Shown here piece by piece: positions 1 to 12,432 of a stretch of DNA of 64,000 bases; the first letter of the stretch is position 1, and every line of letters begins with the position of its first letter. The stretch comes from Nevskia sp. (lineage in GTDB: Bacteria; Pseudomonadota; Gammaproteobacteria; Nevskiales; Nevskiaceae). The stretch is from contig JALNYU010000017.1 of assembly GCA_023229645.1 (NCBI GenBank), forward strand, positions 13,659-77,658. The letters are read 5' to 3'. The notes below the pieces were generated by a model, which searched no databases, was not told where the DNA came from, and was given only the letters and a program-made list of their open reading frames with translations. The translations under genes were made by a program, and so were the position numbers.

Positions 1-1272
1 AGCGGGAAGGTGCAGGGACTGCCACCGCGCCAGAATATCCGGCAGGTTGTTGGCTTCGTGCTTTGTGGCATCCAGCGGCGTGCGTTTATCGTCCAGCGAA
101 TAGCCATCGGCCTGCATGTCGTAGAACCAGACGTTGTCGGTGCCGCCGGAGTCGGTGCGGGTGAACAGCAGAATCGCGGTCGAGACGCCGGCATACGGCT
201 TGAAAACGCCGGAGGGCATTGAGACGATGCCATCCAGCTTGTGGTCCTCAACGATGGCTCTGCGCAGGGCCTTGTGCGCGTTGCTGGAGCCAAACAGCAC
301 GCCGTCCGGCACGATGACGGCGGCGCGGCCGCCGGGCTTGAGCAGGCGCAGGAACAGGGCCAGGAACAGCAGTTCGGTTTTCTTGGTCTTGACCATCGCC
401 TGCAGGTCTTTGGCGGTGCTCTCGTAGTCCAGGCTGCCGGCAAAAGGCGGATTGGCGAGGATGAGGCTGAACTGGCCTTCCACCCCGGAGTGGCCTTGAC
501 TCAGCGAGTCGCGGTTTTCAATCGCCGGATTTTCCACGCCGTGCAGCAGCATATTCATGCTGCCGACGCGGAGCATGATGTTGTCGAAGTCAAAGCCGTG
601 AAAGGTGGCGCTATTGAAGTGCTCGGCTGATGCCTTGCTCGCATACACCGCCTGCTGGTGATGCTGGAGCAGGTATTCGCTGGCGGCGACGAGGAAGCCG
701 GCGGTGCCGCAGGCGGGGTCGCAGATCGTATCCGTGGGTTTCGGCGCCATCATCTCGACCATCAGCTTGATGATGTGGCGCGGCGTGCGGAACTGGCCAT
801 TCTGTCCGGCGCTGGCGATTTTGCCGAGCATGTATTCGTACAAATCGCCCTTGGTATCCCGGTTTTCCATCGGGATCGCGTCCAGCATATCCACGACTTT
901 GGTCAGCAGTGCCGGGGTTGGGATCGTGAAGCGGGCGTCCTTCATATGCGTGGCGTAGGTGCTACCAATGCCGAGCCCCTTGATGAACGGGAAAACCTCA
1001 TCGGCAACCACGGCGTACATCGCCTTTGGATCGCCGAGTTGCCGGAACACCGACCAGCGCAGCGCGTTCTGGCTCGGTTTGAACACCGGCTTCTCAATCG
1101 GCCTCTTGAGGCGGTTGGCCTTCTTTTCCTCGACGGTGTGCAGCTCGTCCAAGCGCTTGATGAATAGCAGGTAGGTCATCTGTTCGATGACCTCCATCGG
1201 GTTGCTGATGCCGCCGCTCCAGAAGGCGTCCCAGATCCGATCGATCTGCCCCTTGATTTCGCCCGTGATCAT
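1..1272 (-). CDS. hsdM: Type I restriction-modification methyltransferase subunit M (3' end outside window)
   Basis: Manual translation from ATG at 1272: MITGEIKGQIDRIWDAFWSGGISNPMEVIEQMTYLLF. SAM motif DPACGTAGFL at 691-720, catalytic NPPF at 442-453. No stop in window, so absent from the ORF track. Confidence 0.93.
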   Translation of the reverse strand, partial: MITGEIKGQIDRIWDAFWSGGISNPMEVIEQMTYLLFIKRLDELHTVEEKKANRLKRPIEKPVFKPSQNALRWSVFRQLGDPKAMYAVVADEVFPFIKGLGIGSTYATHMKDARFTIPTPALLTKVVDMLDAIPMENRDTKGDLYEYMLGKIASAGQNGQFRTPRHIIKLMVEMMAPKPTDTICDPACGTAGFLVAASEYLLQHHQQAVYASKASAEHFNSATFHGFDFDNIMLRVGSMNMLLHGVENPAIENRDSLSQGHSGVEGQFSLILANPPFAGSLDYESTAKDLQAMVKTKKTELLFLALFLRLLKPGGRAAVIVPDGVLFGSSNAHKALRRAIVEDHKLDGIVSMPSGVFKPYAGVSTAILLFTRTDSGGTDNVWFYDMQADGYSLDDKRTPLDATKHEANNLPDILARWQSLHLPA

Positions 1273-1571
1273 CGTCCGCTGTTGGTCTAAGTTGTTATAA
1301 AACGTAATGATGCCTGCTGACGCACGACCGTGCAGGGTATGGGACACAGGTCATCTCGAATCGCCCGCCTTTGATAGGGCACGTAGTTTGCTGGCAGAAA
1401 CCTGTGCCGCCGGTGGTTTGGCCTTGAGCAGGCGCCCGAGCAGGTAACGATGAACCGTTTGCGTTCAACGGTGGTACCATTTCGGAACACCGATTAATGT
1501 AATGGGTGACCGTAGTTTTAGGTGCGTTGCTGGTGGGAATCCTATATCGCAATGATTTGTAAGCATCTTCT

Positions 1572-1796
1572 ATGAAAACGCGCTTCGTATTAAAAGGTGG
1601 GCGTTTGGCTTTCGCCGCTGGCGCATCGGCTTATTTAGCGGGTGCAAGCCAAGCTTTTAATATGTTCCCGGATCCGGGCCGGGTACGGCAGGTGCTACGT
1701 ACTTCACAGGAATCCGATGCGGTATCGCTCCAACGCGATGCCATTGCGCTGCAAAATGACGCGAAGCGAGCGATTAAAAAAGACTTTACCCGCTAA
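1572..1796 (+). CDS. Small hypothetical protein of the kind usually found upstream of DUF2335 genes
   Basis: 74-aa ORF with C-terminal SD..SL..D..AL..D pattern; same strand as the DUF2335 gene. Confidence 0.55.
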   Translation: MKTRFVLKGGRLAFAAGASAYLAGASQAFNMFPDPGRVRQVLRTSQESDAVSLQRDAIALQNDAKRAIKKDFTR

Positions 1797-1801
1797 GGCC
1801 T

Positions 1802-2121
1802 GTTATTGAGTCGGCATCAAGACATTGAACCGTACGTGCGCCATTGAAGCCTATTGCGTCCTGGCGAACGTGGTGGATGAGCCGACTCAATAACCAAAAT
1901 ACATTGATTTTGTTATTGATCCGGCCGCCGCAACATGCGCCCGAACCGATTCTTGCCGAAGCGATCAGCCTGTCAGCCGATCAATGTCAAACAGCCGGAT
2001 CAATAACGCTGATGCAGCCGCTGCGACGGCAGCCGTGAACCGCCAGTGCAACGAGGACGGCGCAGGCAATGCTGGTTCCCTTGCGCGACGACCGATACCG
2101 CAATGGCGGCTCGCGGTTCAC
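1802..2121. repeat. Three consecutive long inverted-repeat (hairpin) units
   Basis: GTTATTGAGTCGGC 1802-1815 / GCCGACTCAATAAC 1881-1894; GTTATTGATCCGGC 1912-1925 / GCCGGATCAATAAC 1994-2007; GTGAACCGC 2035-2043 / GCGGTTCAC 2113-2121. Confidence 0.85.
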
Positions 2122-2155
2122 CAGGCGGATTTTTGACTTATAACGTAGTGATCGC

Positions 2156-2656
2156 ATGACTGTTAACAGGCCCCAGATGCCGAACGACGACGCGCCGCAG
2201 ACCCCCGTCGATAAAGTTGTTGCTGAGGTTGCCCGCACAACGCACGATCTGCCCCCCGAGCGGCAGGAAGAAATCGCAAACACGATGCGTATGGCGTTGC
2301 TGGAAACGCGGTTTTCTGGCCCATTACCGCCGCCAGATATGCTGGCGAAATATCAAGAAATCATTGCAAACGGCGCCGAGCGGATCATGGCGTCTACTGA
2401 GCGCGAACAAGCGCATCGGCATTACGTGGATAAAGCGTTGGTCGATGCCGAAATTGCCACGGCAAGCCGCGGCCAAATCATGGCTTTCATATTGGCCTTG
2501 GTGTGCATCGCCGTTGCGCTGGTGCTCGGTTTGTATAGCCACGATGTGCTTGCTGGCGTGATCGGCGGCGGAACACTGGTGTCGGTTGTCACCATTTTTA
2601 TCGTCGGCCGCAAAAACAAAAACGGCAAGCCGAAAGACGATACGGAAAGCCAATAG
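2156..2656 (+). CDS. DUF2335 family membrane protein
   Basis: FSGPLPPPDMLAKYQEIIANGAERIM...EQAHRH signature plus two C-terminal TM helices. Confidence 0.88.
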   Translation: MTVNRPQMPNDDAPQTPVDKVVAEVARTTHDLPPERQEEIANTMRMALLETRFSGPLPPPDMLAKYQEIIANGAERIMASTEREQAHRHYVDKALVDAEIATASRGQIMAFILALVCIAVALVLGLYSHDVLAGVIGGGTLVSVVTIFIVGRKNKNGKPKDDTESQ

Positions 2657-2685
2657 GCTCACCTGAGCCGCGCCCATTCCGGGCG

Positions 2686-2775
2686 CTACTGGCGCATCAT
2701 CCGCAGCCGCTGTACATCGATTGAATCCGGCTTGATGAAGCCTCCACGCGTGGGCATTCGCGCGGCTTAGCGCTC
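2686..2775 (-). pseudogene. Degenerate 3' fragment paralogous to the 4575-4928 phage membrane gene
   Basis: Reads ER*AARMPTRGGFIKPDSIDVQRLRMMRQ* versus ERYADQMPAWEDFIKPDSIDVRALRKMR*; 18 bp identical at 2723-2740 and 4609-4626. Confidence 0.8.
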
Positions 2776-2916
2776 TCCAAAGCCATCGGTATCCGCGTCG
2801 GGGAGACGCGCAGGCGCCGGTCCTGCGCAACCCGCCTCCGGCGAGAAATGCGCTGCCACTTGATCAAACCCGTTCAGCGGCATTACTAATCCCGCCGGGT
2901 ATCGCAGCCGCAGCGT

Positions 2917-3294
2917 GTGGCTGGATCGCTACTGGAGGAATCGGAAACCGAAGGCGCAAAGCCCGGCCGGCGGCGGCTGAGGCGCCGCGTGCTCACCGAG
3001 CCAGCGTATCGCCTGGAAGCGCAGCAGTTTGCGCAAAACACAATGGCGCAGTATCGAGCGTTATTGCCAGCCGGCACGGCGGTACCGGCGTGGGATGCTG
3101 CAGCCGAGCAGCGGCTGGCGGATGGTTTGATCGCGGCGGTGTTGGGCGCCAACCGCTGGTTGGTGAGCGTTGATCACACCCAGCGTTTGCAGGCCACGCC
3201 GGTGCCAAGACACGCGGCGATCATCGACCCGAAGAACGCCGAAAACATGGTGATGATCATGAATGAGTACGTGCCGGTGGCGCTGCTGCCGTAG
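2917..3294 (+). CDS. Hypothetical protein or fragment
   Basis: 125-aa ORF with protein-like composition; no family recognised, start uncertain. Confidence 0.3.
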   Translation: MAGSLLEESETEGAKPGRRRLRRRVLTEPAYRLEAQQFAQNTMAQYRALLPAGTAVPAWDAAAEQRLADGLIAAVLGANRWLVSVDHTQRLQATPVPRHAAIIDPKNAENMVMIMNEYVPVALLP

Positions 3295-3474
3295 CCGGTG
3301 CAGATCGGCGGGGCGCGCTTGGCGCGGCTTGCCCGGCAAGCCGGCACGCTAGAACCTACCGCACCGAAGGTGGCAAGTCGGTAGCGGCAAGAATTGTTGA
3401 TTGATATTCGGCCGAATACGATGTTGCTGGTGACCTGTAACAATTAAGGTTGCCGATTTTTACCTGAGTTCGAC

Positions 3475-3615
3475 ATGGCCGAGCACCTGGGCGACGCGCA
3501 GGCGGTTGCCGAGTATCTGACCATTGTGACGGAAGAGAACGACCCTTCCGCGCTGGCGCACGCGCTTGATACGGTGGCACGTGCGCGGAATGGGCGTCAT
3601 CAGGAAGCTGGCTAG
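3475..3615 (+). pseudogene. Truncated putative addiction-module antidote protein (HI1420-like)
   Basis: FDMAEHLGDAQAVAEYLTIVTEENDPSALAHALDTVARAR matches the family N-terminus; stops before the HTH. Confidence 0.7.
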
Positions 3616-3712
3616 TTGGCGTGCAGTCTCGGTTTGATGCCGTAGCAGCCTGTGGACGCCCGCACTCGGCAGCCTGCGTTCCGGAGATAGTTTGCTCGCG
3701 CCGCCGCCAGTG

Positions 3713-3958
3713 CTAGGCAGCCCTAAGTATTGAATAAAACTCTTTTTTGCTTACACCGAGTTGCTTGAGCATGTAGCCCAGGAGCTTGTCGGTAAATGGC
3801 GCGTGGTGGGCATCTACCGTTACGAGCCGCCTTTGCCCGTTGTAAATACCATCCCAGTTTTCATGACTGGTGCCACTTTGCGGTCTTGGCTTGAATCCCA
3901 GTTTTACCAATACCTTTTTGAAATCCTTGGCGGTTACGGGAGGGTGCTGCCCACTCAC
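3713..3958 (-). CDS. hicA: HicA-family mRNA interferase toxin
   Basis: 81 aa; KVLVKLGF..R..GTSHE.W....RRLVTV pattern with conserved GSH-type His. Confidence 0.85.
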   Translation of the reverse strand: MSGQHPPVTAKDFKKVLVKLGFKPRPQSGTSHENWDGIYNGQRRLVTVDAHHAPFTDKLLGYMLKQLGVSKKEFYSILRAA

Positions 3959-4293
3959 ACCAAGGCCAACGGCGGGGATTCTTCGGTGAACGCTTGGTCA
4001 CCTTTATCTGCGCGCCGGTTGCCGCCGATATAGTTGAAGAACTTGATTCGGTACCAGTTAAAATACGCCCACAGCGGTGCGCGTCGACGTAATAGCGCGG
4101 AACGAAACTCTGGCGTCTCAGTAAGCGCAGTTTTTACGTAGTCTTTGATCTGCGCTTCGAGTTTCTGTTTGGCTTCAGCTAAGGAGTCGGCTTGCGCCGC
4201 GAGGCCAAATTCGAGCGACATTGCAACGTATTGCGAACCTTCTTTGGACGCAATGCAGCGAATGACTGAAGGTGAGTGCGAATGCGCAGGCAC
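3955..4293 (-). CDS. hicB: HicB-like antitoxin (short, RNase H-like fold only)
   Basis: YVAMSLEFGLAAQADSLAEAKQKLEAQIKDY motif; GTG start with AAGGAG RBS; 4-bp overlap with hicA. Confidence 0.75.
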   Translation of the reverse strand: MPAHSHSPSVIRCIASKEGSQYVAMSLEFGLAAQADSLAEAKQKLEAQIKDYVKTALTETPEFRSALLRRRAPLWAYFNWYRIKFFNYIGGNRRADKGDQAFTEESPPLALV

Positions 4294-4310
4294 TTTTATA
4301 ACTCCTTAAT

Positions 4311-4326
4311 TCCTAAAATTTTAGGA
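4311..4326. promoter_or_regulatory. Perfect 16-bp palindrome upstream of hicB (candidate operator)
   Basis: TCCTAAAATTTTAGGA, starting 18 bp upstream of the hicB start. Confidence 0.5.
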
Positions 4327-4574
4327 TTCAGCTCCGGATAAACGCTTCATCCGCAACCCAAAGCGGCGCTTCATCAAAGCTATCTTTTGTATTTTAATGA
4401 TACAACGGAATAGTACAACGGACATCTGGCGTCGAAGGTTGCAGCGTAATTACAGGCGGCAGATAGCGCGGCATAAGCCGCGAATCTGGGGCTTGGCTCC
4501 GATTAATGCGCAAAAATCAGCGTGCCGATCTGAAATTGGGCTAGATACCGGTTAGCTGCTCATTCCTCGCGGCG

Positions 4575-4928
4575 CTACCTCATCTTCCGCAGCGCGCGTA
4601 CGTCGATCGAATCCGGCTTGATGAAGTCTTCCCAGGCGGGCATTTGGTCGGCGTAGCGTTCATCGCTGGCGAGCATGGTGTGGAGGATGCGCATGGCGTC
4701 CATCATTTGGTTGATGCGTTCTTCGCAAGCTTCGTTGCGGTAGTAAAGGCGGTAGGCGAGCCAGCCGACCATCATCAGCACTAGCAGCATGAAGATGAGC
4801 GTGGATGCCGGGCTTGAGACGACGGTGGAGGCGACATCGACCCAGCCTTTTACTTGTTCGGCGGTGATCATCACGGCGGCGGCGCCGGCGCCGGCGGCAA
4901 CGGTTCCGGCGATGTTTTTCGGGTTCAT
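4575..4928 (-). CDS. Phage membrane protein downstream of the spanins (holin-like candidate)
   Basis: 117 aa with two hydrophobic segments; 4-bp overlap with the o-spanin stop. Confidence 0.6.
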   Translation of the reverse strand: MNPKNIAGTVAAGAGAAAVMITAEQVKGWVDVASTVVSSPASTLIFMLLVLMMVGWLAYRLYYRNEACEERINQMMDAMRILHTMLASDERYADQMPAWEDFIKPDSIDVRALRKMR

Positions 4929-5176
4929 GGGCGTTCCTTGCGGGTTGGGTTCTCGGGTTCAGGTTCGGCGAGCGCGGCGGCGCGGCATTTGCGGTATTGG
5001 CCAGCTACATCAACGAGCTTGGCGGTTGTGGCGCCGAAGCTGGGATCAGTGAGCGGCGTCAGGGCTGGGCAGTTAGCGATCACCAACGGGGTTGGGCTCG
5101 GTGCCGACGAGCGCGGCGTTGATTGTGCGCAGCACGTCAGGAGCGTGCAGGCACTCGCGATAAACAGGCTTTTCAC
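4925..5176 (-). CDS. Rz1-like outer-membrane spanin lipoprotein
   Basis: GTG start MKSLFIASACTLLTCCAQS (lipobox-like), Pro-rich linker, CPALTPLTDPSFGATTAKLVDVAGQYRKCRAA; partly embedded in the i-spanin in another frame. Confidence 0.72.
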   Translation of the reverse strand: MKSLFIASACTLLTCCAQSTPRSSAPSPTPLVIANCPALTPLTDPSFGATTAKLVDVAGQYRKCRAAALAEPEPENPTRKERP

Positions 5177-5414
5177 GGATTTCGGTTTCCAATTGCTGGC
5201 GAATGGTGACGTGCTTGATTTCGATTCCGGCGATCTGCGCGGCCACTGCGCGTTGGGTTTGCTCGGCTGCAGCAGTGACGATGCGCTGTTCGCGATCCTG
5301 CGCGCCGCGCTCGAGGGCGGCGCCATCGGTGCGGCCGAACCAATACGCGCCGCCGCTGCAGGCGAGCAGCACGGCGGCGGCAGCGGGTATGGCCCAGAGC
5401 GGTAGTGGGATCAC
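5073..5414 (-). CDS. Rz-like inner-membrane spanin
   Basis: N-terminal TM, helical body, KHVTIRQQLETEIREKPVYRECL C-terminus; start overlaps the endolysin stop. Confidence 0.72.
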   Translation of the reverse strand: MIPLPLWAIPAAAAVLLACSGGAYWFGRTDGAALERGAQDREQRIVTAAAEQTQRAVAAQIAGIEIKHVTIRQQLETEIREKPVYRECLHAPDVLRTINAALVGTEPNPVGDR

Positions 5415-5590
5415 AGATCCTCCGCGCCGTAGCGGAGATCGTTCGCGGCGCGGCCGGCCCAGCCGTCACCAAACTTTGGCCATGTGGGTAGGTGTCGCCA
5501 GAAGTCCAGCCGCTCGGTGATCAAGCGCATGACCACGTTGGCGGTGTTGCGGGCGCGAATGGCGGCGAGCGTCACTGGGCCGATGTCGCC
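5411..5590 (-). pseudogene. C-terminal fragment of a GH108-type endolysin (PG_binding_3 region)
   Basis: Manual translation GDIGPVTLAAIRARNTANVVMRLITERLDFWRHLPTWPKFGDGWAGRAANDLRYGAEDL*; N-terminal catalytic part missing. Confidence 0.78.
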
Positions 5591-5593
5591 GTA

Positions 5594-6031
5594 GCACCGC
5601 CCAAACTCAATCTTCTACGGATCGAGGAGGAACTGAGCGCGGCGCACCTGCATCTCTCCTTGGCATATATTGAAAACCTGCCCTGGATCGATGTCGTGAA
5701 ACGCTACGACCGGCCGCACACGCTGTTTTACTGCGATCCGCCGTACTGGCAGACTGCAGGCTATGGCGTCGAGTTTGGCTTCGAGCATTACGAAAATATG
5801 GCCCAGTACATGCGCGAGATCGACGGGACGATGATCGTGTCGATCAACGATCACCCGGATATTCGGAAGGTATTTGCTGAATTTCCGATGACGACAGTAG
5901 CGATCAACTACACCGTCGGTGGAGGGCAGAACGCGCAATCGGCCAAAGAGCTGATCATCGGTAACCGGAGTGAAGGTTGGCCAGCAGCTAAATCAATGAC
6001 CGAAACCATCGGCTTAAACCTGGATTTTTGA
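5594..6031 (+). pseudogene. C-terminal half of a phage D12-class N6-adenine (Dam-like) methyltransferase
   Basis: PPKLNLLRIEEELSAAHL...FYCDPPYW...SINDHP; SAM-binding N-terminus absent. Confidence 0.82.
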
Positions 6032-6206
6032 CAGTCCTAAAAAGCTCATTTAAATCCCAATAATTGGTGGGACAAATCAAACGTAAAAATAGGCCAAATC
6101 AAACTGCGCGCTACAATCACACTGCAGAAATTGTCAGTCCAACACGCTGACGATATTGGACAGATACTGGACAATGCGAAATTGTCTTGGGTAAGTCGTT
6201 GATTAT

Positions 6207-6228
6207 TGGTGCGAGAAGAGGAATCGAA
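6207..6228 (-). repeat. att site: copy of the tRNA-Thr 3' end
   Basis: TGGTGC-GAGAAGAGGAATCGAA versus TGGTGCCGAGAAGAGGAATCGAA at 12357-12379 (1-bp deletion). Confidence 0.88.
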
Positions 6229-6281
6229 TCGAGATATTTTGCGCAGTTAATACAGTAGGTTGAAATTATCGATGTTCGTCA

Positions 6282-6302
6282 GTACCGCCATAAATACCGT
6301 CA
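6282..6302. repeat. Integrase arm-type sites, left end
   Basis: GTACCGCCA 6282-6290 and ATACCGTCA 6294-6302; same motif as at 12203-12256. Confidence 0.65.
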
Positions 6303-6431
6303 GGCTGCGGCATTGCCCGTTGAATCTGTCGGAGACGCAGACACTTTTGGCGCCTCTGATCTTTCGTCCAACGCCGCCGAGTAAGCCGAGCTTGGGCGTA
6401 GCGTCTTGCTACTTCGGCCGCATTCCCGGCC

Positions 6432-6686
6432 CTATTCGGCCAAGTCTTGCGTTACTGCCGCGTACTTCTGCGCAAAGTTGATCAGATCGCCGCCGCATGC
6501 CTGCAAGGCTTCCTCAACGGCTACCCAATCGAGCCGGCGCTGACCGCGCTCATAGTCGCTGACGTAGCTTTGAGCACGCCCCAATTTTGCCGCCAAGTCG
6601 GCTTGCGTAAGGCCCGCATCGCATCGAACCTGCTTCAATAATTCCCGGAATTTCTCGCGCTTGGCGCTGTAGAGCCGCTTTGTCAT
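6432..6686 (-). CDS. XRE-family HTH regulator
   Basis: AGLTQADLAAKLGRAQSYVSDYERGQRRLD. Confidence 0.9.
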   Translation of the reverse strand: MTKRLYSAKREKFRELLKQVRCDAGLTQADLAAKLGRAQSYVSDYERGQRRLDWVAVEEALQACGGDLINFAQKYAAVTQDLAE

Positions 6687-6713
6687 GCAGCGACCCTAAT
6701 ATCTGCTTTACAG

Positions 6714-6732
6714 TTATCTAAAAGTCAGATAA
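6714..6732. promoter_or_regulatory. Imperfect palindrome between the divergent XRE and cargo genes
   Basis: TTATCT-AAAAGTC-AGATAA. Confidence 0.45.
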
Positions 6733-6762
6733 TTTTCTGCAATACGGACATAACGACACGAC

Positions 6763-7404
6763 ATGCATATTTACGACGTAACCGGGGCAACACTATTTGA
6801 GGGATTCGGAGGCCATACCAGCATTTGGGACGGAATTAAGGAACCGGCGGAACCTATATCGAATCCTGAACGAAGAATGCGTCTTAGTTTTCAAGTAAAG
6901 CTATCTAAGCGTTGTAGACAAACAAGGCTTACAGAAGGTACTTATCTGAATGAGCTGGAGGGGTCTATCACAATTTACTCCCCAACTGATAGTCCAGACG
7001 ATCTAAGTATGGGAATAGGCGTGATGTCCTATAGGGATGGCGAATATAGCCCGGAAGGGTACGCTATAAAGGTTCTGCTGCCATATGACCAATTTAGGGA
7101 TCTTTTAACTGCCGCTCAATTAGGTAATGTTCCTTCTGAAATTACTGTGCATGAAAGAGGCATGAAGTTATTAGATAGTGAAGAGAGGGAATGGGACAAT
7201 AAATCATCGCCTCGTTTATACGTCGCTTCTATAGATTTTTCTGTGCCTTTGGCGGGATATGGAAAACAAATAATCCAACTAGAACGGAGCCTGCGCGCGA
7301 CCACTTCACTACTTGAAAAAGCAGGTATAAGGCTTAAGAGGGCAGCAACTGGTTTAATTGTCATTTTGGTATTTGCTGTACTTTTGTTCAAGTATTCTCT
7401 TTGA
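6763..7404 (+). CDS. AT-rich hypothetical protein with C-terminal TM anchor (satellite cargo)
   Basis: 213-aa ORF, visibly AT-richer than its flanks, ends ATGLIVILVFAVLLFKYSL. Confidence 0.7.
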   Translation: MHIYDVTGATLFEGFGGHTSIWDGIKEPAEPISNPERRMRLSFQVKLSKRCRQTRLTEGTYLNELEGSITIYSPTDSPDDLSMGIGVMSYRDGEYSPEGYAIKVLLPYDQFRDLLTAAQLGNVPSEITVHERGMKLLDSEEREWDNKSSPRLYVASIDFSVPLAGYGKQIIQLERSLRATTSLLEKAGIRLKRAATGLIVILVFAVLLFKYSL

Positions 7405-7729
7405 TTGCATTGCTAGGAAGTGACGGCTTATTTACGGCGCTCGGTAGTTGATTGGCTTCGACATGAAGCCGACGCACCCGATCCGTCGCTTTGGCCAACG
7501 CGACTCCAATATCCAAATCGCTGTTCGTGTTGACTGATGCTTCTTGCGGAATCAGTCTAGCCGCGACACGGAAGTAATCGGTCGGGTTGGCCTTCGCCCA
7601 TTCGAGCAGCCAGGCTTCGCCGCCGCCTTTCTCGAAGACATTCAGCACCGCTTCCTTGAACGTTGTCGTTATTCGATTCGGCGTGCCCGCTTTTCGGCCG
7701 CTGCCGGGTGTTTTGTATCCGATTGCCAT
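7388..7729 (-). CDS. Terminase small subunit-like protein
   Basis: GSGRKAGTPNRITTTFKEAVLNVFEKGGGEAWLLEWAKANPTDYF resembles short phage TerS-type proteins. Confidence 0.6.
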   Translation of the reverse strand: MAIGYKTPGSGRKAGTPNRITTTFKEAVLNVFEKGGGEAWLLEWAKANPTDYFRVAARLIPQEASVNTNSDLDIGVALAKATDRVRRLHVEANQLPSAVNKPSLPSNAIKENT

Positions 7730-7749
7730 TTGAAATTTCCTCTAAGGGT

Positions 7750-9861
7750 CTATTTTACGCGGCTCGCAGGTGGTGGGCTGCTGGTATCAAGCCCTAAAAG
7801 ATCATTCACGCCAAGTGCGCCAAGCTCTAAATGTTGGCGTGACTGAGGTTCGTTTGGCGCGACTGATAAGGACCAGATTGCCCCGCCGCCGAAACCGTCC
7901 CTGCGGAATTCGACGCCGATCCCCGTTGCGGCGCGTTGGACTGTCCGAAATTTATGACCGGCTTCGGCTGCCGCTGCTTCCACGTCCTTTTTTTGTTTTG
8001 GCCCAGCCGCGAGAAACGACGTGAGCCAGGAAGCGGCACGGACTGCGGCGCCTTGGCCGCCTTCGCGCTTGCCCTCGTGTGTGGCTTCGGCGTCCGCGAG
8101 CAATTCACGGGCATTGCCGTCCACCGGCTCACCCCACCGCACCCTTTGCGCGAACAGCCCGGCGTGTCCGGGTAGTTCGTATTGTTCAAGCTCATAGCCA
8201 AAGCCGCCTTTGTCCGGCCCGATATTCGACTTGGCACGCACCAATAGACGGCCGCCGCCCTGTTCGTCCGGCAGCTTTGCCGTGGCGAGCACGACGCGGG
8301 CGAGCGCCCCAAATGCCACCGACCCGGTGACACGCTCAACCACGTCCCGACCGGCAGTGCCCTTGCTGAAATGCGTGATGCCGACAATCGCACAACGAAG
8401 CCGCTGCCCCAGATCGACCAGCGGCTGTAAGTTACGGCGCGTTTCAGTGTTTTTATGCGAATCGCCCGTAACAACGGATACCACCGGGTCCACAATTAAA
8501 AGCGCTGGACGGAAATTCTGTTTCCGAATTTCCTCTTCCAGTAACGGCAAGTCGGTGGCCGGATCGAATGCGCGACTCGAAGCATCCGCTTCCCAAGTCG
8601 CAGAAATAATATGCACCCGAGACAGATCGGCGCCGCAGGCTTCCAGGCGCGGGCGCAAGGTATCGGCCGGATCATCTTCGCCAGACCAAATGAGCACGTC
8701 CCCTGCATCGGCGTGCGTGCCGTCGGGCCAGCGCCCGCCGGCCGATACGACCGCCGCGAGCGCAAGCATAAGCGAGGTTTTTCCGGTCCCCGGCGCGCCA
8801 GCGACGATGTGCAACTTCCCTCGCGCAAGCCAATCGCGCCAAAGCCAAGCCACTGGCTCCGGCGTGACATCGGCCGCACGGGTGAGCAGCACGCCCGTGG
8901 AGCCGTTGCTCGCATTCGTCTTTGCGGGTGCCGAGCGTGGATTTTTCCAGCCGGCGCGTTGCGACTCGGCGAATACCGCATTGTGCCCTGTGCTCGTCGG
9001 CCGGAGGCTGTCCCAAACGCGCGCCGCGTCCGCCGCGTCGAATTTCTCGCTGGTCTGGCTCCAACTCAACCAAAGCTCGCGCCCAGTGTCATCCAGTTCC
9101 CATAGTGCGTGCGCCACACGCACCCACAGCTGGCGATCATCGGCGCGCAGATGATTCAGCGCTGACCGGAGATCGGAAACGAGTTCATTCGTTATTTCGG
9201 TGGGGTCCAGGCGAGCAAGCGGGGTGGCGTGGTTCGCAGCAGTCGTAACGCTGGGCGAGGTTGGCGGAGATGTTGGGGTAAGCCCCGCGTCCAGCGCCAA
9301 TTGCTCGAAGGCGGCTATGCCGGCCTGCGCTAGCTCGCGCGTCATTGTCGTGTGCAATTTCGCTTCGACTTGGGCCAGTTCGACGAAGTCGCCGACCCAC
9401 TGGTACGGTTGCCGCGTATCGGGATGAATGCCATAGGCGACGAACTGTTGACCGTCTCCGAGAATTTCGAGCCGGTGTTGCTGACCCGCCGCGTCGGTGA
9501 ACGCGCGGCTGGTCATCTTTTTCCAGCCCGGTTCGGATGCGCGGAAAACCAGCAGCGTTTTCGGCGCTTTTCCGGTTCTTTGGCAAGCGGTATCGACGTT
9601 GACCCGGAACCATTCGACCACCTTCGCAACCAGATCGGGATGGGTGGAGTCGATGTCCACCCCCGCGATGGGGTTGTCGCCCTGACCACAAAGTACACCC
9701 CAGCCGTGGCCGGAGAATCGGGGAATATCGGAAGCCGTCAGGCTCGAACGCTGCCATTCTGGAAGAGTCGGTCTTTTCGTCTGCGGGCGGATCGGAACAA
9801 TTCGGTAGCCATTCTCCAGCAACGCATGCGCCTTGTCGGAAAAATCGGCGGTGGCGCTCAT
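7750..9861 (-). CDS. Primase-polymerase + PriCT-2 + AAA_25 helicase replication protein
   Basis: N-terminal Prim-Pol (GWGVLCG..GVDID), PriCT-2 (WLSWSQTSEKFD), Walker A GAPGTGKT, Walker B LLIVDP. Confidence 0.9.
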   Translation of the reverse strand: MSATADFSDKAHALLENGYRIVPIRPQTKRPTLPEWQRSSLTASDIPRFSGHGWGVLCGQGDNPIAGVDIDSTHPDLVAKVVEWFRVNVDTACQRTGKAPKTLLVFRASEPGWKKMTSRAFTDAAGQQHRLEILGDGQQFVAYGIHPDTRQPYQWVGDFVELAQVEAKLHTTMTRELAQAGIAAFEQLALDAGLTPTSPPTSPSVTTAANHATPLARLDPTEITNELVSDLRSALNHLRADDRQLWVRVAHALWELDDTGRELWLSWSQTSEKFDAADAARVWDSLRPTSTGHNAVFAESQRAGWKNPRSAPAKTNASNGSTGVLLTRAADVTPEPVAWLWRDWLARGKLHIVAGAPGTGKTSLMLALAAVVSAGGRWPDGTHADAGDVLIWSGEDDPADTLRPRLEACGADLSRVHIISATWEADASSRAFDPATDLPLLEEEIRKQNFRPALLIVDPVVSVVTGDSHKNTETRRNLQPLVDLGQRLRCAIVGITHFSKGTAGRDVVERVTGSVAFGALARVVLATAKLPDEQGGGRLLVRAKSNIGPDKGGFGYELEQYELPGHAGLFAQRVRWGEPVDGNARELLADAEATHEGKREGGQGAAVRAASWLTSFLAAGPKQKKDVEAAAAEAGHKFRTVQRAATGIGVEFRRDGFGGGAIWSLSVAPNEPQSRQHLELGALGVNDLLGLDTSSPPPASRVK

Positions 9862-10271
9862 TGCCCGCCCCCGATGCGGCTTCCACGCACGGCGGGTGGT
9901 CCGAAATTTTCCTGGGCTGAGATTTCGGCGGCGGTACCGGGGTCTTGCGTCGGCGTCTCAGAATAGGGGGTGGTGGGGGTTGGCCGGTGTTTGGGTCCCT
10001 TTTTTGAGGGCGTTGGTCTGGTCAGGTCGGGATGCGCGTGCGCGGAGCCGCCTTCCGTCGATAGAACATCGCGCAAGTCGCCGACGCGCCATGTGGTGGT
10101 TCGCGGTCCGTGCTTAAAGGGCTTGGGCAACGTGCCGGCCTGTACTCGCCGCCAGACGGTGGAGGCTGAAATTCCGAAGAGGGCTTCTACAACGGGCTGC
10201 CGAACGTGGGCGGCTGCGGGCAAGGAATCGAAGTGACGCAGTGCGTCGGGAATACTGAAACTGGATTGCAT
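9858..10271 (-). CDS. alpA: AlpA-family excisionase/regulator with long C-terminal extension
   Basis: VRQPVVEALFGISASTVWRRVQAGTLPKPFKHGPRTTTWRVGDL; likely ATG at 10271. Confidence 0.82.
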   Translation of the reverse strand: MQSSFSIPDALRHFDSLPAAAHVRQPVVEALFGISASTVWRRVQAGTLPKPFKHGPRTTTWRVGDLRDVLSTEGGSAHAHPDLTRPTPSKKGPKHRPTPTTPYSETPTQDPGTAAEISAQENFGPPAVRGSRIGGGQ

Positions 10272-10313
10272 GGTGTGACTCCGTATAGGTGGAGCCCACA
10301 CAATTCCAGGCGA

Positions 10314-10346
10314 AACGGAACTGAGCCTAGCGAAGTTCCGTTTTTT
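10314..10346. terminator. Hairpin between the unknown ORF and alpA
   Basis: AACGGAACT 10314-10322 / AGTTCCGTT 10334-10342 followed by a T-run on +. Confidence 0.45.
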
Positions 10347-10980
10347 GTTCGCTTGGTGAAAAAAATTTCGCCAGATACTTACGAATCTGACGAGTGCTTA
10401 AGTCGAAGCCCCCGCCCTCGAAGATTCGCGTCGTCAGTTCGCGGCGTGCTACTCCGGCATCGAGCAATCTTATTGCTTTGAGCCAGATTTTTAGTTCTGT
10501 GCAGCTGGTCTCATGCGATTTACTTGCCGCCGTTTTGCGTCCCCCTTTTTGAGCACGATTTCTCGCGGACCGCCCATAAGCGACATCGTCCCGCAGCGCG
10601 GCAAGCGTCTTCCAATGCTGTTGGGTCCGGCCCATGAGGAGCGCGCTCTGTGCCGCAAATAAGAGAACCAGCGGCGAGGTCTTATTTACCCGTCGAAAGA
10701 GCATCGCCAGCAGCGCGTAGGCTTGTGCATCATCCAGATCATCGACCGTTTTAGGCGGCGAAGGCGGCGGACCTAATCCCCGGCGACCATGCAAACGTAT
10801 CGGCATCCATTGCACTATTGAAGGTTCGCCGCTGGCCCGCCATTGCTCGAATAGTTCGAGTGCGAACTGCGGGGCATCTGTTTCGGGAACGGCATTTAAT
10901 GCAACCACCGCCAATACCATTCCGGCGTCCGCCGCGTCCCGATACCAAGACGGGGACATATTTACCTGGTTCTGAGTCAT
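10327..10980 (-). CDS. Hypothetical satellite protein (possible C-terminal HTH)
   Basis: 217-aa ORF 9 bp downstream of int; C-terminal LSTRQIRKYL. Confidence 0.65.
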   Translation of the reverse strand: MTQNQVNMSPSWYRDAADAGMVLAVVALNAVPETDAPQFALELFEQWRASGEPSIVQWMPIRLHGRRGLGPPPSPPKTVDDLDDAQAYALLAMLFRRVNKTSPLVLLFAAQSALLMGRTQQHWKTLAALRDDVAYGRSARNRAQKGGRKTAASKSHETSCTELKIWLKAIRLLDAGVARRELTTRIFEGGGFDLSTRQIRKYLAKFFSPSEQKTELR

Positions 10981-10989
10981 AACCGACCG

Positions 10990-12198
10990 TTACGCTGCTT
11001 TAATTGACACGACCTTGCTTTCCCCTCGACGCAGGCGATCAAGATAATCCGCCCAAGCCTGCATCATCTTCCGGCGTTCGGGCAGGTGTTCAGCGTAGTT
11101 GTAGGCCGCGCGGACCTTGTTGCGCTCGGCATGCGCAAGCTGGCGTTCGATAGCATCGCGGTGCCAGCCTTGTTCGTTCAGCAGCGTGGATGCCATGCTG
11201 CGGAAGCCGTGGCCGCTCATTTCCTCGCCGCTGTAGCCGAGCCGACGCAGTGCGGCGAGTACCGTGTTTTCGCTCATCGGGTCGATATGACGACGGGCAC
11301 TGGGGAAGACGTAGCGGCCCGATCCGGTCAGCGGCTGCAGGTCGCGTAGAACGGTAACGGCTTGCTCGGACAACGGCACGATGTGCGCGGTGCGCATTTT
11401 CATCTTGGCGGCCGGAATGCGCCATTCCGATACGGCAAGGTCGAATTCGCACCATTCGGCGTGTCGGAGTTCGCCGGGGCGCACGAACACCAGCGGCGCC
11501 AGCTTGAGCGCGCAAGCGGTGACGAACGAACCCTGATAGCCGTCGATTGCTCGCAGTAGCGGGCCGATCTGTGCCGGGTCCGTGATGCTGGCGCGGTGGC
11601 GCGTCTTCGGGGTTGCCAGCGCCCCGCGCAGCGGCGCGGTCGGATCGTCGGACGCGCGGCCGGTAGCGACGGCGTAGCGAAACACGCGGCCGGCCTGTTG
11701 CTTGACGCGCTGCGCGGTTTCCAGCTTGCCCCGCGCCTCAATGCGGCGGAGCAACGCCAACATTTCGGGCGCCGTTATGGCGTTGATCGGTTTGGCGCCG
11801 ATCCAGGGAAAGGTTAACGATTCAAACATCCATAGCGCCTTGGCGCGGGTCACGTCGGCGAGGTCTTGCTTTTCCAGCCATTCGCGGGCGATGGCTTCAA
11901 ACGTATTCTTCACCGCCGCCTCGCGCGCGGTCTTTTGTTCCTGCTTGGCCGCACTGGGGTCCGTGCCATCGGCTAACTGCCGCCGGGCTGAATCCAGGCG
12001 CTCCCGAGCTTTAGCCAGGGTGATTTCAGGATAGGTGCCGAGCGCCAGCGTTTTACGCAATCCCTCGTGCCGGTAATCGAAGCGCCACAACTTGGAGCCG
12101 GTGGGTTTCACCAGCAGATAGAGCCCGCGTCCGTCGGCGAGTTTGAAGGGCTTTTCGGCCGGTTTTGCATTTTTCAGCTTGGCGTCGTTCAGTAGCAC
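10990..12198 (-). CDS. int: P4-like tyrosine integrase with Arm-DNA-binding domain
   Basis: KLADGRGLYLLVKPTGSKLW N-terminus; RPGE, HGFR, QLAH...Y catalytic motifs. Confidence 0.96.
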   Translation of the reverse strand: MLLNDAKLKNAKPAEKPFKLADGRGLYLLVKPTGSKLWRFDYRHEGLRKTLALGTYPEITLAKARERLDSARRQLADGTDPSAAKQEQKTAREAAVKNTFEAIAREWLEKQDLADVTRAKALWMFESLTFPWIGAKPINAITAPEMLALLRRIEARGKLETAQRVKQQAGRVFRYAVATGRASDDPTAPLRGALATPKTRHRASITDPAQIGPLLRAIDGYQGSFVTACALKLAPLVFVRPGELRHAEWCEFDLAVSEWRIPAAKMKMRTAHIVPLSEQAVTVLRDLQPLTGSGRYVFPSARRHIDPMSENTVLAALRRLGYSGEEMSGHGFRSMASTLLNEQGWHRDAIERQLAHAERNKVRAAYNYAEHLPERRKMMQAWADYLDRLRRGESKVVSIKAA

Positions 12199-12202
12199 GT
12201 CG

Positions 12203-12256
12203 ATACCGTCAGCACTGGGGATGTACCGTCAGTGATACCGTCAAATTTGGCGGTAC
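12203..12256. repeat. Integrase arm-type sites, right end
   Basis: RTACCGTCA at 12203, 12223 and 12235; inverted GGCGGTAC at 12249-12256. Confidence 0.7.
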
Positions 12257-12287
12257 GTCAAGCGATGGCTTGATACGTTGCGGGCAT

Positions 12288-12322
12288 GAAAAAGGCCATA
12301 AATCCTGTTGGAATATGGCCTT
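12288..12322 (-). terminator. Terminator-like hairpin downstream of tRNA-Thr
   Basis: AAGGCCATA 12292-12300 / TATGGCCTT 12314-12322 with a T-run on -. Confidence 0.5.
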
Positions 12323-12356
12323 ATGAGATGTCGTGAGACCTTGAGAAACCGGTGGA

Positions 12357-12432
<76 letters not shown>

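Follow-up and report, generated by a model that had tools for sequence, protein, structure and literature searches.

We analysed a 64,000-nucleotide (nt) window of a Nevskia sp. genome (GenBank assembly GCA_023229645.1, contig JALNYU010000017.1, positions 13,659 to 77,658 of the forward strand; all positions below are those of the window) and describe here an element of about 6.15 kb that lies at a threonine transfer RNA (tRNA) gene, tRNA-Thr(CGT), and that resembles a small phage satellite in its gene content. The element is bounded by a 17-nt exact repeat, CGAGAAGAGGAATCGAA, at 6212-6228 and 12363-12379. This sequence occurred twice in the 64-kb window against an expectation of 0.02 and the pair was its sole occurrence in the 4.26-Mb genome, even with up to two mismatches tolerated. 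When one 1-nt indel was permitted the attachment (att) repeat extended to 6207-6228 and 12357-12379, and the proximal copy corresponded to the 3' end of tRNA-Thr(CGT). The unit measured 6,151 bp by the start-to-start spacing of the repeats and 6,173 bp when both repeats were counted. The distal att copy was one base short just outside the exact core (TGGTGCGAG at 6207-6212 versus TGGTGCCGAG at 12357-12363), so that precise excision would leave tRNA-Thr(CGT) with an acceptor 3' strand 1 nt shorter, a change that would be harmless if excision occurs in cells doomed by a helper phage. No clean empty attachment site was obtained from same-genus genomes, which were only about 76% identical and in which synteny around tRNA-Thr/GDPD/acnA was lost. 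The ends of the element also carried putative arm-type integrase sites. The motif RTACCGTCA had four exact matches in the 64 kb (0.42 expected; 0 of 100 shuffles reached four) and these were confined to the element ends, at 12203, 12223 and 12235 beside the integrase gene and at 6294 at the far end, with copies carrying one mismatch at 6282 and 12248. The integrase has an Arm-DNA-bind_3 domain, fitting the arm sites.

Open reading frames (ORFs) were annotated against Pfam, PHROGs and NCBIfam, and the PADLOC defence library was used for orf213. Seven ORFs were found between the repeats, all of them intact and open (Table 1). The replicase gene (pri) begins with a start codon that overlaps the alpA stop codon (ATGA), and the gene for a 113-aa protein starts 20 nt past the pri stop codon behind a GGAAA ribosome-binding site. 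The AlpA-like protein scored below the 21-bit Pfam cut-off, a weak call on its own, but a 60%-identical homologue in a Nitrosospira element (L052) cleared the cut-off at 22.4 bits. The true start of this gene is likely at 10271, giving 137 aa, and it was called at 137 aa in the two other public copies described below. Between int and alpA, orf217 found only itself among 5.8 billion proteins and matched no Pfam, PHROGs or NCBIfam family; its single-sequence AlphaFold2 (AF2) model was unusable, with a predicted local distance difference test (pLDDT) score of 46. At the other end of the element, orf213 runs convergent with the gene for the 113-aa protein with a 17-nt overlap, is AT-richer (GC 0.44-0.49), encodes a hydrophobic C-terminal tail and had no match in Pfam, PHROGs, NCBIfam or PADLOC. 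The palindrome upstream of it is a candidate operator at which the XRE-family regulator might control this cargo gene. Capsid, tail, portal, large terminase (TerL), lysis, Sid and Psu families gave zero matches among the seven ORFs in the three family libraries. No tandem repeats were found in the element, Rfam detected no RNAs besides the tRNA, and a scan for promoters and terminators gave no signal above chance.

Table 1. Genes and sites of the element in window coordinates, listed from the distal repeat to the tRNA gene.
Feature	Position	Strand	Evidence
Distal att repeat	6207..6228		17-nt core 6212-6228 plus outer 5 nt matching the tRNA end save a 1-nt deletion
Distal arm-type sites	6282..6302	+	GTACCGCCA (1 mismatch) and ATACCGTCA
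XRE-family helix-turn-helix (HTH) regulator, 84 aa	6432..6686	-	HTH_31 E 3e-13; HTH_3 E 1e-9; PHROG transcriptional regulator families
Palindrome TTATCT-N7-AGATAA	6715..6733		76-bp xre-orf213 gap; sequence read
orf213, cargo gene, no assigned function	6763..7404	+	No family match; composition
Small-terminase-like gene, 113 aa	7388..7729	-	phrog_11043 E 2.5e-7; TerL synteny of homologues
Replicase (pri), 703 aa, Prim-Pol + PriCT_2 + AAA_25 helicase	7750..9861	-	Domain matches
AlpA-like HTH regulator/excisionase	9858..10301	-	PF05930 19.2 bits; phrog_66 E 1e-4
orf217, ORFan between int and alpA	10327..10980	-	No family match
int, P4/CP4-57-type tyrosine integrase, 402 aa, full length	10990..12198	-	Arm-DNA-bind_3, Phage_int_M, Phage_integrase; phrog_1; PRK09692 288 bits
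Integrase-proximal arm-type sites	12203..12256	+	3 exact RTACCGTCA + 1 inverted 1-mismatch copy
tRNA-Thr(CGT), including proximal att repeat 12357-12379	12357..12432	-	ARAGORN; Rfam 76.9 bits

These results bear on an earlier note on this DNA, which had described an apparently intact element of about 6.15 kb at tRNA-Thr with att repeats and matching arm sites at both ends. The unit length, the genome-wide uniqueness of the repeat pair, the restriction of all four exact arm motifs to the two ends, the seven open ORFs and the full-length integrase all agree with that description. The reported lack of capsid, tail and Sid/Psu genes was likewise borne out. The note had further arranged the genes as a co-oriented five-gene core plus an XRE/cargo pair; the XRE gene, however, shares the orientation of the core and only orf213 lies on the opposite strand. 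Its alpA call is weak from the score of the protein itself but gains support from the L052 homologue.

The same note had called the 113-aa protein similar to small terminases (TerS), and we assessed this gene by the context of its homologues. A HMMER scan of 1.84 billion cluster representatives at a cut-off of E <= 1e-3 collected 2,080 relatives, nearly all of 80-130 aa. The family shares an N-terminal domain of about 65 residues with a basic G-x-G-R-x-x-G-T-P-N arm followed by FKEAV...GG...WA..NPTEFY.IAARLIP (alignment A1). In all of the approximately 18 phage or viral contexts examined the family member was located directly upstream of the TerL gene, usually overlapping it, and a portal gene usually came next. 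These contexts included gp30 of Xylella phage Xfas53 and homologues in three Sulfitobacter podoviruses, metagenomic phage contigs (L035, L037/L038, L023, L022 and L036), two prophage-type contigs (L043 and L045) whose bacterial source belongs to the family of the host, and eight IMG/VR contigs. The downstream gene was identified as TerL in 10 of 10 cases tested (phrog_2, 979 or 38), and in L043 the homologue opens the late operon, leaving no rival TerS candidate there. In a confident AF2 model of the protein (pLDDT 83) the basic arm was disordered and accompanied by a bundle of three helices and one long helix, a predicted fold compatible with a DNA-binding, oligomerising TerS. The conserved synteny makes a strong case for the 113-aa protein as a credible small-terminase homologue, in line with the earlier call. 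Membership of DUF5681 (PF18932) was considered and rejected, as the protein itself did not match this family at E <= 10 and only 5 of 72 family members did. An hhalign comparison with the genuine DUF5681 protein of the same genome aligned only the 18-residue basic arm, and we regard the 113-aa family as an unnamed neighbour of DUF5681 and not a member of it.

The closest relatives of the 113-aa protein in bacterial genomes were found mostly in other mini-islands and never beside TerL; no TerL or portal gene was present within 10 kb in islands L050-L054, L056, L058, L059 and L044. The first eight of these islands came from Nitrospira, Nitrospiraceae and Nitrosospira hosts. Islands carrying these relatives were 5.0-11.8 kb in length and encoded AlpA, a CHC2 primase, a DUF3631 or AAA_25 helicase, the TerS-like protein, an XRE regulator and an integrase, and the gene order in Nitrospira and Nitrosospira was AlpA, CHC2 primase, DUF3631 helicase, a 115-aa ORF, the TerS-like gene, XRE, int and the tRNA. 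The island ends were 17-48-nt repeats of a tRNA 3' end, that of tRNA-Leu(CAG), tRNA-Gly(CCC) or tRNA-Arg(CCT), and the tRNA-bounded sizes were 5,044, 5,824, 5,996, 6,800, 8,056, 9,902 and 11,822 bp. We consider the Nitrospira and Nitrosospira islands to be candidate phage satellites of nitrifiers. In the family of the host itself, L044 holds a similar element at tRNA-Thr(TGT), with an integrase 60% and an AlpA 43% identical to those described here, together with a CHC2 primase, an AAA_25 helicase and a TerS-like gene. The replicases of these islands are mutually non-orthologous, yet the TerS slot after the replicase was retained.

To place the TerS of the element we examined a tree of 35 family members, on which the satellite or phage label changed five times. 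The Nitrospira-type copies formed one clade (SH-like approximate likelihood ratio test support 94), and the copy of this element fell outside that clade, among phage copies that included one from the same host family. Its top identity on the tree was 46%, to phage L036. The label changes point to several independent captures of a phage TerS into the post-replicase slot, and the tree, which was built from a short domain and has modest support, indicates that this slot has been filled repeatedly. A separate search with the replicase returned two IMG/VR contigs as its sole results there, L046 and L047 (6.3 and 8.0 kb), both of which encode an integrase, a prohead protease and a major capsid protein of the HK97 type, plus a helicase that shares 59% identity with the AAA_25 portion of pri. 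As capsid-encoding sequences these were rejected as related elements; they look like elements of the cfPICI type (phage-inducible chromosomal islands that form capsids) or prophage fragments that share the replicase module.

Two further copies of the element were present in public data. An identical copy was found in another sequencing sample (L048, a 6,331-bp contig equal to window 6074-12404), and a third sample carried a variant 99.67% identical over 4.8 kb (L049). Both run into the same tRNA, showing that both are integrated. The variant differed at 16 positions, 13 of them synonymous and three non-synonymous, indicating purifying selection; the 113-aa gene accounted for three synonymous and no non-synonymous differences. 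Fifteen of the 16 substitutions lay within 7619-8704 (the 3' half of pri plus terS) and one in the remaining 3.7 kb, a cluster across the pri-terS junction that suggests a possible recombination patch.

Taking the gene content and its relatives together, we think it probable that the element is a minimal satellite in tRNA-Thr(CGT), similar to phage-inducible chromosomal islands (PICIs), that moves by a TerS-based hijack of a helper phage. It has its own integrase, regulator, replicase and packaging-recognition protein but no shell, tail or lysis genes, so that spread through a helper phage is the most likely route. The att repeats and arm sites are to all appearance intact, the integrase is full length, the replicase domains are in place and TerS was assigned by conserved synteny; from these we infer the induction, excision, replication and packaging of the satellite and the kind of helper as follows. 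A non-resident helper phage would infect the cell and turn on the alpA-pri-terS operon. Int, acting at the 17-nt core and at the RTACCGTCA arm sites and aided by AlpA and possibly by orf217, would then excise a circle of 6.15 kb, and the Prim-Pol/PriCT_2/AAA_25 replicase would amplify the circle into concatemers. The 113-aa TerS homologue would bind a pac site on the satellite and recruit the large terminase of the helper, resulting in headful packaging of satellite concatemers into full-size helper capsids. As the element encodes no capsid-resizing protein, there would be room for six or seven copies in a capsid with a capacity of about 40 kb. Packaging of concatemers in full-size capsids has been shown for PICMIs (phage-inducible chromosomal minimalist islands; PMC10803314) and for virion-encapsidated integrative mobile elements (VEIMEs; PMC9618062). 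In the next host the DNA would circularise and integrate at tRNA-Thr. The XRE/orf213 pair would occupy a cargo slot, perhaps with a role in defence or exclusion.

Several results weigh against this proposal. The 113-aa protein had no Pfam match even at E <= 10 and none in NCBIfam, Foldseek of its model returned nothing significant in PDB or BFVD, and a profile hidden Markov model search of PDB sequences with the family gave 0 matches. The TerS call depends on synteny. TerL is, moreover, preceded by a further small ORF in some phages, in L035 by one for an HTH_8 protein and in Xfas53 by gp29. The nearest homologues of the replicase (51% identity, L027-L034) reside in int-AlpA-pri islands that carry an unrelated Zn-finger-like gene after pri, suggesting that TerS is an exchangeable module rather than part of a fixed core. 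A search of the element for an iteron-type origin gave no result. IMG/VR contained no close relative or copy of it, and both other public copies are integrated and so give no evidence of a circle. Finally, BLAST and phmmer searches of the genome with 13 TerL proteins and 12 portal proteins from the associated phages returned no match to a resident helper.

With no cognate helper in the genome, the predicted helper would be an incoming pac-type phage that carries this TerS family. L045, from the same host family and with a TerS 48% identical to that of the element, is an example of the predicted type. The only evident prophage in the genome was Mu-like and located on contig C36 (93,700-125,600), where it carries genes for a transposase, MuB-like proteins and a tail as well as a terS/terL pair; this TerL shows no relationship to the TerLs linked with the 113-aa family. 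Elsewhere in the genome, contig C41 (48,175-57,223; L024/L025) contains a small island between tRNA-Arg(TCT) and tRNA-Ser(TGA) whose genes encode a tyrosine integrase, an excisionase-like HTH_17 protein, an AAA_25 helicase and the genuine DUF5681 protein (157 aa, 46 bits), alongside a type II restriction-modification (RM) pair. Besides the element described here, this island is a possible second satellite-like element of the genome.

An alternative that we consider unlikely, although the best placed of the three we weighed, is a phage-independent, self-replicating islet, a plasmid-like circle moved by vesicles, transformation or mobilisation by a conjugative element, in which the 113-aa protein would be a small regulator that binds DNA and is related to phage proteins only by descent. 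The wide distribution of the int-alpA-pri chassis with unrelated genes after pri would suit such an islet, as would the failure of the 113-aa protein to match any characterised TerS by family or fold and a genome in which the TerL and portal searches found no helper. However, neither a relaxase, an oriT-type protein nor a coupling protein was identified among the seven ORFs in Pfam and PHROGs searches, and the 113-aa family was tied to TerL in every phage context examined. Its recurrence in several non-orthologous mini-islands is hard to explain without a selected packaging role.

The region beyond the distal repeat was also examined. The interval from argA to the element (window 1-6200; contig C10:4,500-19,860) is occupied by an island of about 15 kb without an integrase gene, which encodes a type I RM system (HsdR/HsdS/HsdM), a PIN-like pair, a 619-aa protein without an assigned function and HicAB. 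It also contains phage debris, namely a spanin-like remnant at 5073-5414 and a truncated Dam-type methylase at 5492-6031, of which contig C36 holds a copy with 96% identity. The island probably goes back to an earlier insertion at this tRNA-Thr.

This neighbourhood touches on two further alternatives to a helper-dependent satellite. The element could be a phage-defence island, its XRE/orf213 cargo being what is selected, its mobility incidental and the TerS homologue a decoy that blocks the packaging of an invader. Such a role would fit an AT-richer, membrane-anchored orf213 under XRE with a predicted palindromic operator, a neighbouring defence island with type I RM and HicAB, and the common interference of satellites with their helpers (PMC10085698, PMC6092414). 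Set against this, orf213 had no PADLOC match, the complete integration and replication kit was retained, and interference and transfer are not mutually exclusive, the TerS of PICIs doing both; we judge defence as the main function to be improbable, more so than the self-replicating islet. A decaying prophage remnant, in which an integrase-proximal early region kept int, regulator, primase and terS while the late genes were lost, is very improbable: phage debris does lie just past the distal repeat and phages such as BPP-1 have related Prim-Pol domains, but that debris is outside the repeat, exactly these seven genes are enclosed by the two att copies and the arm sites at either end, phage TerS-like genes sit in the late operon beside TerL and not after a primase, several independent 5-6-kb islands with complete tRNA-end repeats share the layout, and the differences in the L049 variant indicate purifying selection.

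If the helper-dependent satellite proposed here is real, about 6 kb and five functions (integrating, switching on, replicating, recognising its own DNA for packaging and one cargo slot) would suffice for a terS-based satellite, not far from the minimum size that PICMIs define. It would also provide a functional handle on a large unannotated family, the 2,080 cluster representatives of which are small phage proteins in the TerS position, and it points to satellites in lineages without catalogued ones, among them Nitrospira, Nitrosospira and the family of the host. A broader reading, which we put forward tentatively and hold less probable than the proposal for this single element, is that it forms, together with the islands of Nitrospira, Nitrosospira and other hosts, a class of 'TerS-only' satellites of 5-6 kb that spans phyla and has no name as yet. 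Members would share a tRNA-integrating int/AlpA/replicase chassis whose post-replicase slot has repeatedly taken a small terminase of about 100 aa from local podoviruses and siphoviruses, and would travel as multi-copy concatemers in the unmodified capsids of non-resident, possibly virulent helpers. Such a class would be the terS-bearing counterpart of PICMIs and would supply satellites of environmentally important nitrifiers.

We compared the element with the known satellite families. With P4-like satellites it shares a P4/CP4-57-type integrase, an AlpA/Vis-type regulator and a primase-helicase, whereas it has no Sid, Psu, Delta or Epsilon homologues and its replicase has another architecture. 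P4 has no TerS because it uses the cos system of its helper. A P4-like identity was rejected, as the psu-delta-sid operon and epsilon were absent and at least 4 of 7 core components were missing in Pfam and PHROGs searches. A cfPICI identity was rejected in the same searches, which found no capsid, protease, portal, head-tail adaptors or TerL of its own.

PICMIs are inserted next to fis in Vibrionaceae, are about 6 kb in length and carry a DUF3987/DUF5906-type primase (PMC10803314), and the earlier note had described their location, host and size correctly. The element resembles them in its size of about 6 kb, its 6-7 genes, its 17-bp direct repeats, its core of int, small gene, alpA and primase and its non-resident helper; in both, the lack of a capsid remodelling gene leads to the expectation of multi-copy concatemers in full-size capsids. 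It differs in its integration in tRNA-Thr(CGT), in replicase type and in having a TerS homologue, and the text of the PICMI paper makes no mention of a terminase gene (PMC10803314). A PICMI identity was rejected on the grounds that the element is not at fis and its primase is not of the DUF3987/DUF5906 type. VEIMEs, found in marine plankton, are likewise small and integrative, often with a tyrosine integrase, AlpA and a primase/helicase and with no capsid genes (PMC9618062). They sometimes carry a TerS, most similar to that of co-occurring phages (PMC9618062). VEIMEs are defined by concatemers inside virions (PMC9618062), whereas the present element is known from its genes and had no close relative in IMG/VR.

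The closest correspondence was with PICIs. The SatelliteFinder model of a PICI has five components, an integrase, an alpA/merR/stl-type regulator, a primase-replicase, a capsid-morphogenesis gene and terS; islands with four of the five are Type B (1,061 of 1,436 PICIs, 74%) and those with three are Type C (PMC10085698). The order of the element, int, accessory gene, AlpA-like regulator, primase-replicase, putative terS and accessory genes, follows that of PICIs, in which accessory genes are reported between int and the regulator and after terS (PMC10085698). The orf217 slot, the int-alpA interval, is where PICIs hold such genes and where the PICMI holds iolg. The element further shares with PICIs a specific att site, the absence of structural and lysis genes and a putative satellite-borne TerS of phage origin. 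The 402-aa integrase with its three domains and the Prim-Pol, PriCT_2 and AAA_25 Pfam domains of the replicase provide two of the components, and none of the components forbidden by the model (tail, holin, cfPICI portal or connectors) lay within the repeats, the spanin-like remnant being outside. As the capsid-morphogenesis gene, which is required for Type A only, is missing, the element can have at most four of the five components, corresponding to Type B. It would be classified as Type B if the SatelliteFinder profile detects its TerS and otherwise as Type C. Published profiles would probably miss a TerS without a Pfam match and demote the element to Type C, and because such TerS proteins lack a profile, profile-based satellite finders would miss or demote elements of this kind. 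The suggestion in the earlier note that the element may not fit the named families was overstated, since its composition and order match PICI Type B of SatelliteFinder (PMC10085698). It does differ from typical PICIs. At 6.15 kb and seven genes it is smaller than the PICI median of 9.5 kb and 15 genes (PMC10085698) and below the 12-15 kb typical under the original criteria (PMC6092414), its TerS comes from an uncharacterised family of about 100 aa without a Pfam match, and its replicase is of the Prim-Pol/PriCT_2/AAA_25 type. In functional terms, PICIs are islands that a helper phage induces and that are packaged specifically into its particles and transferred at high frequency (PMC6092414); for this element such behaviour is predicted from gene content. 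Together these comparisons suggest that the element is an unusually small, uncatalogued PICI-like variant.

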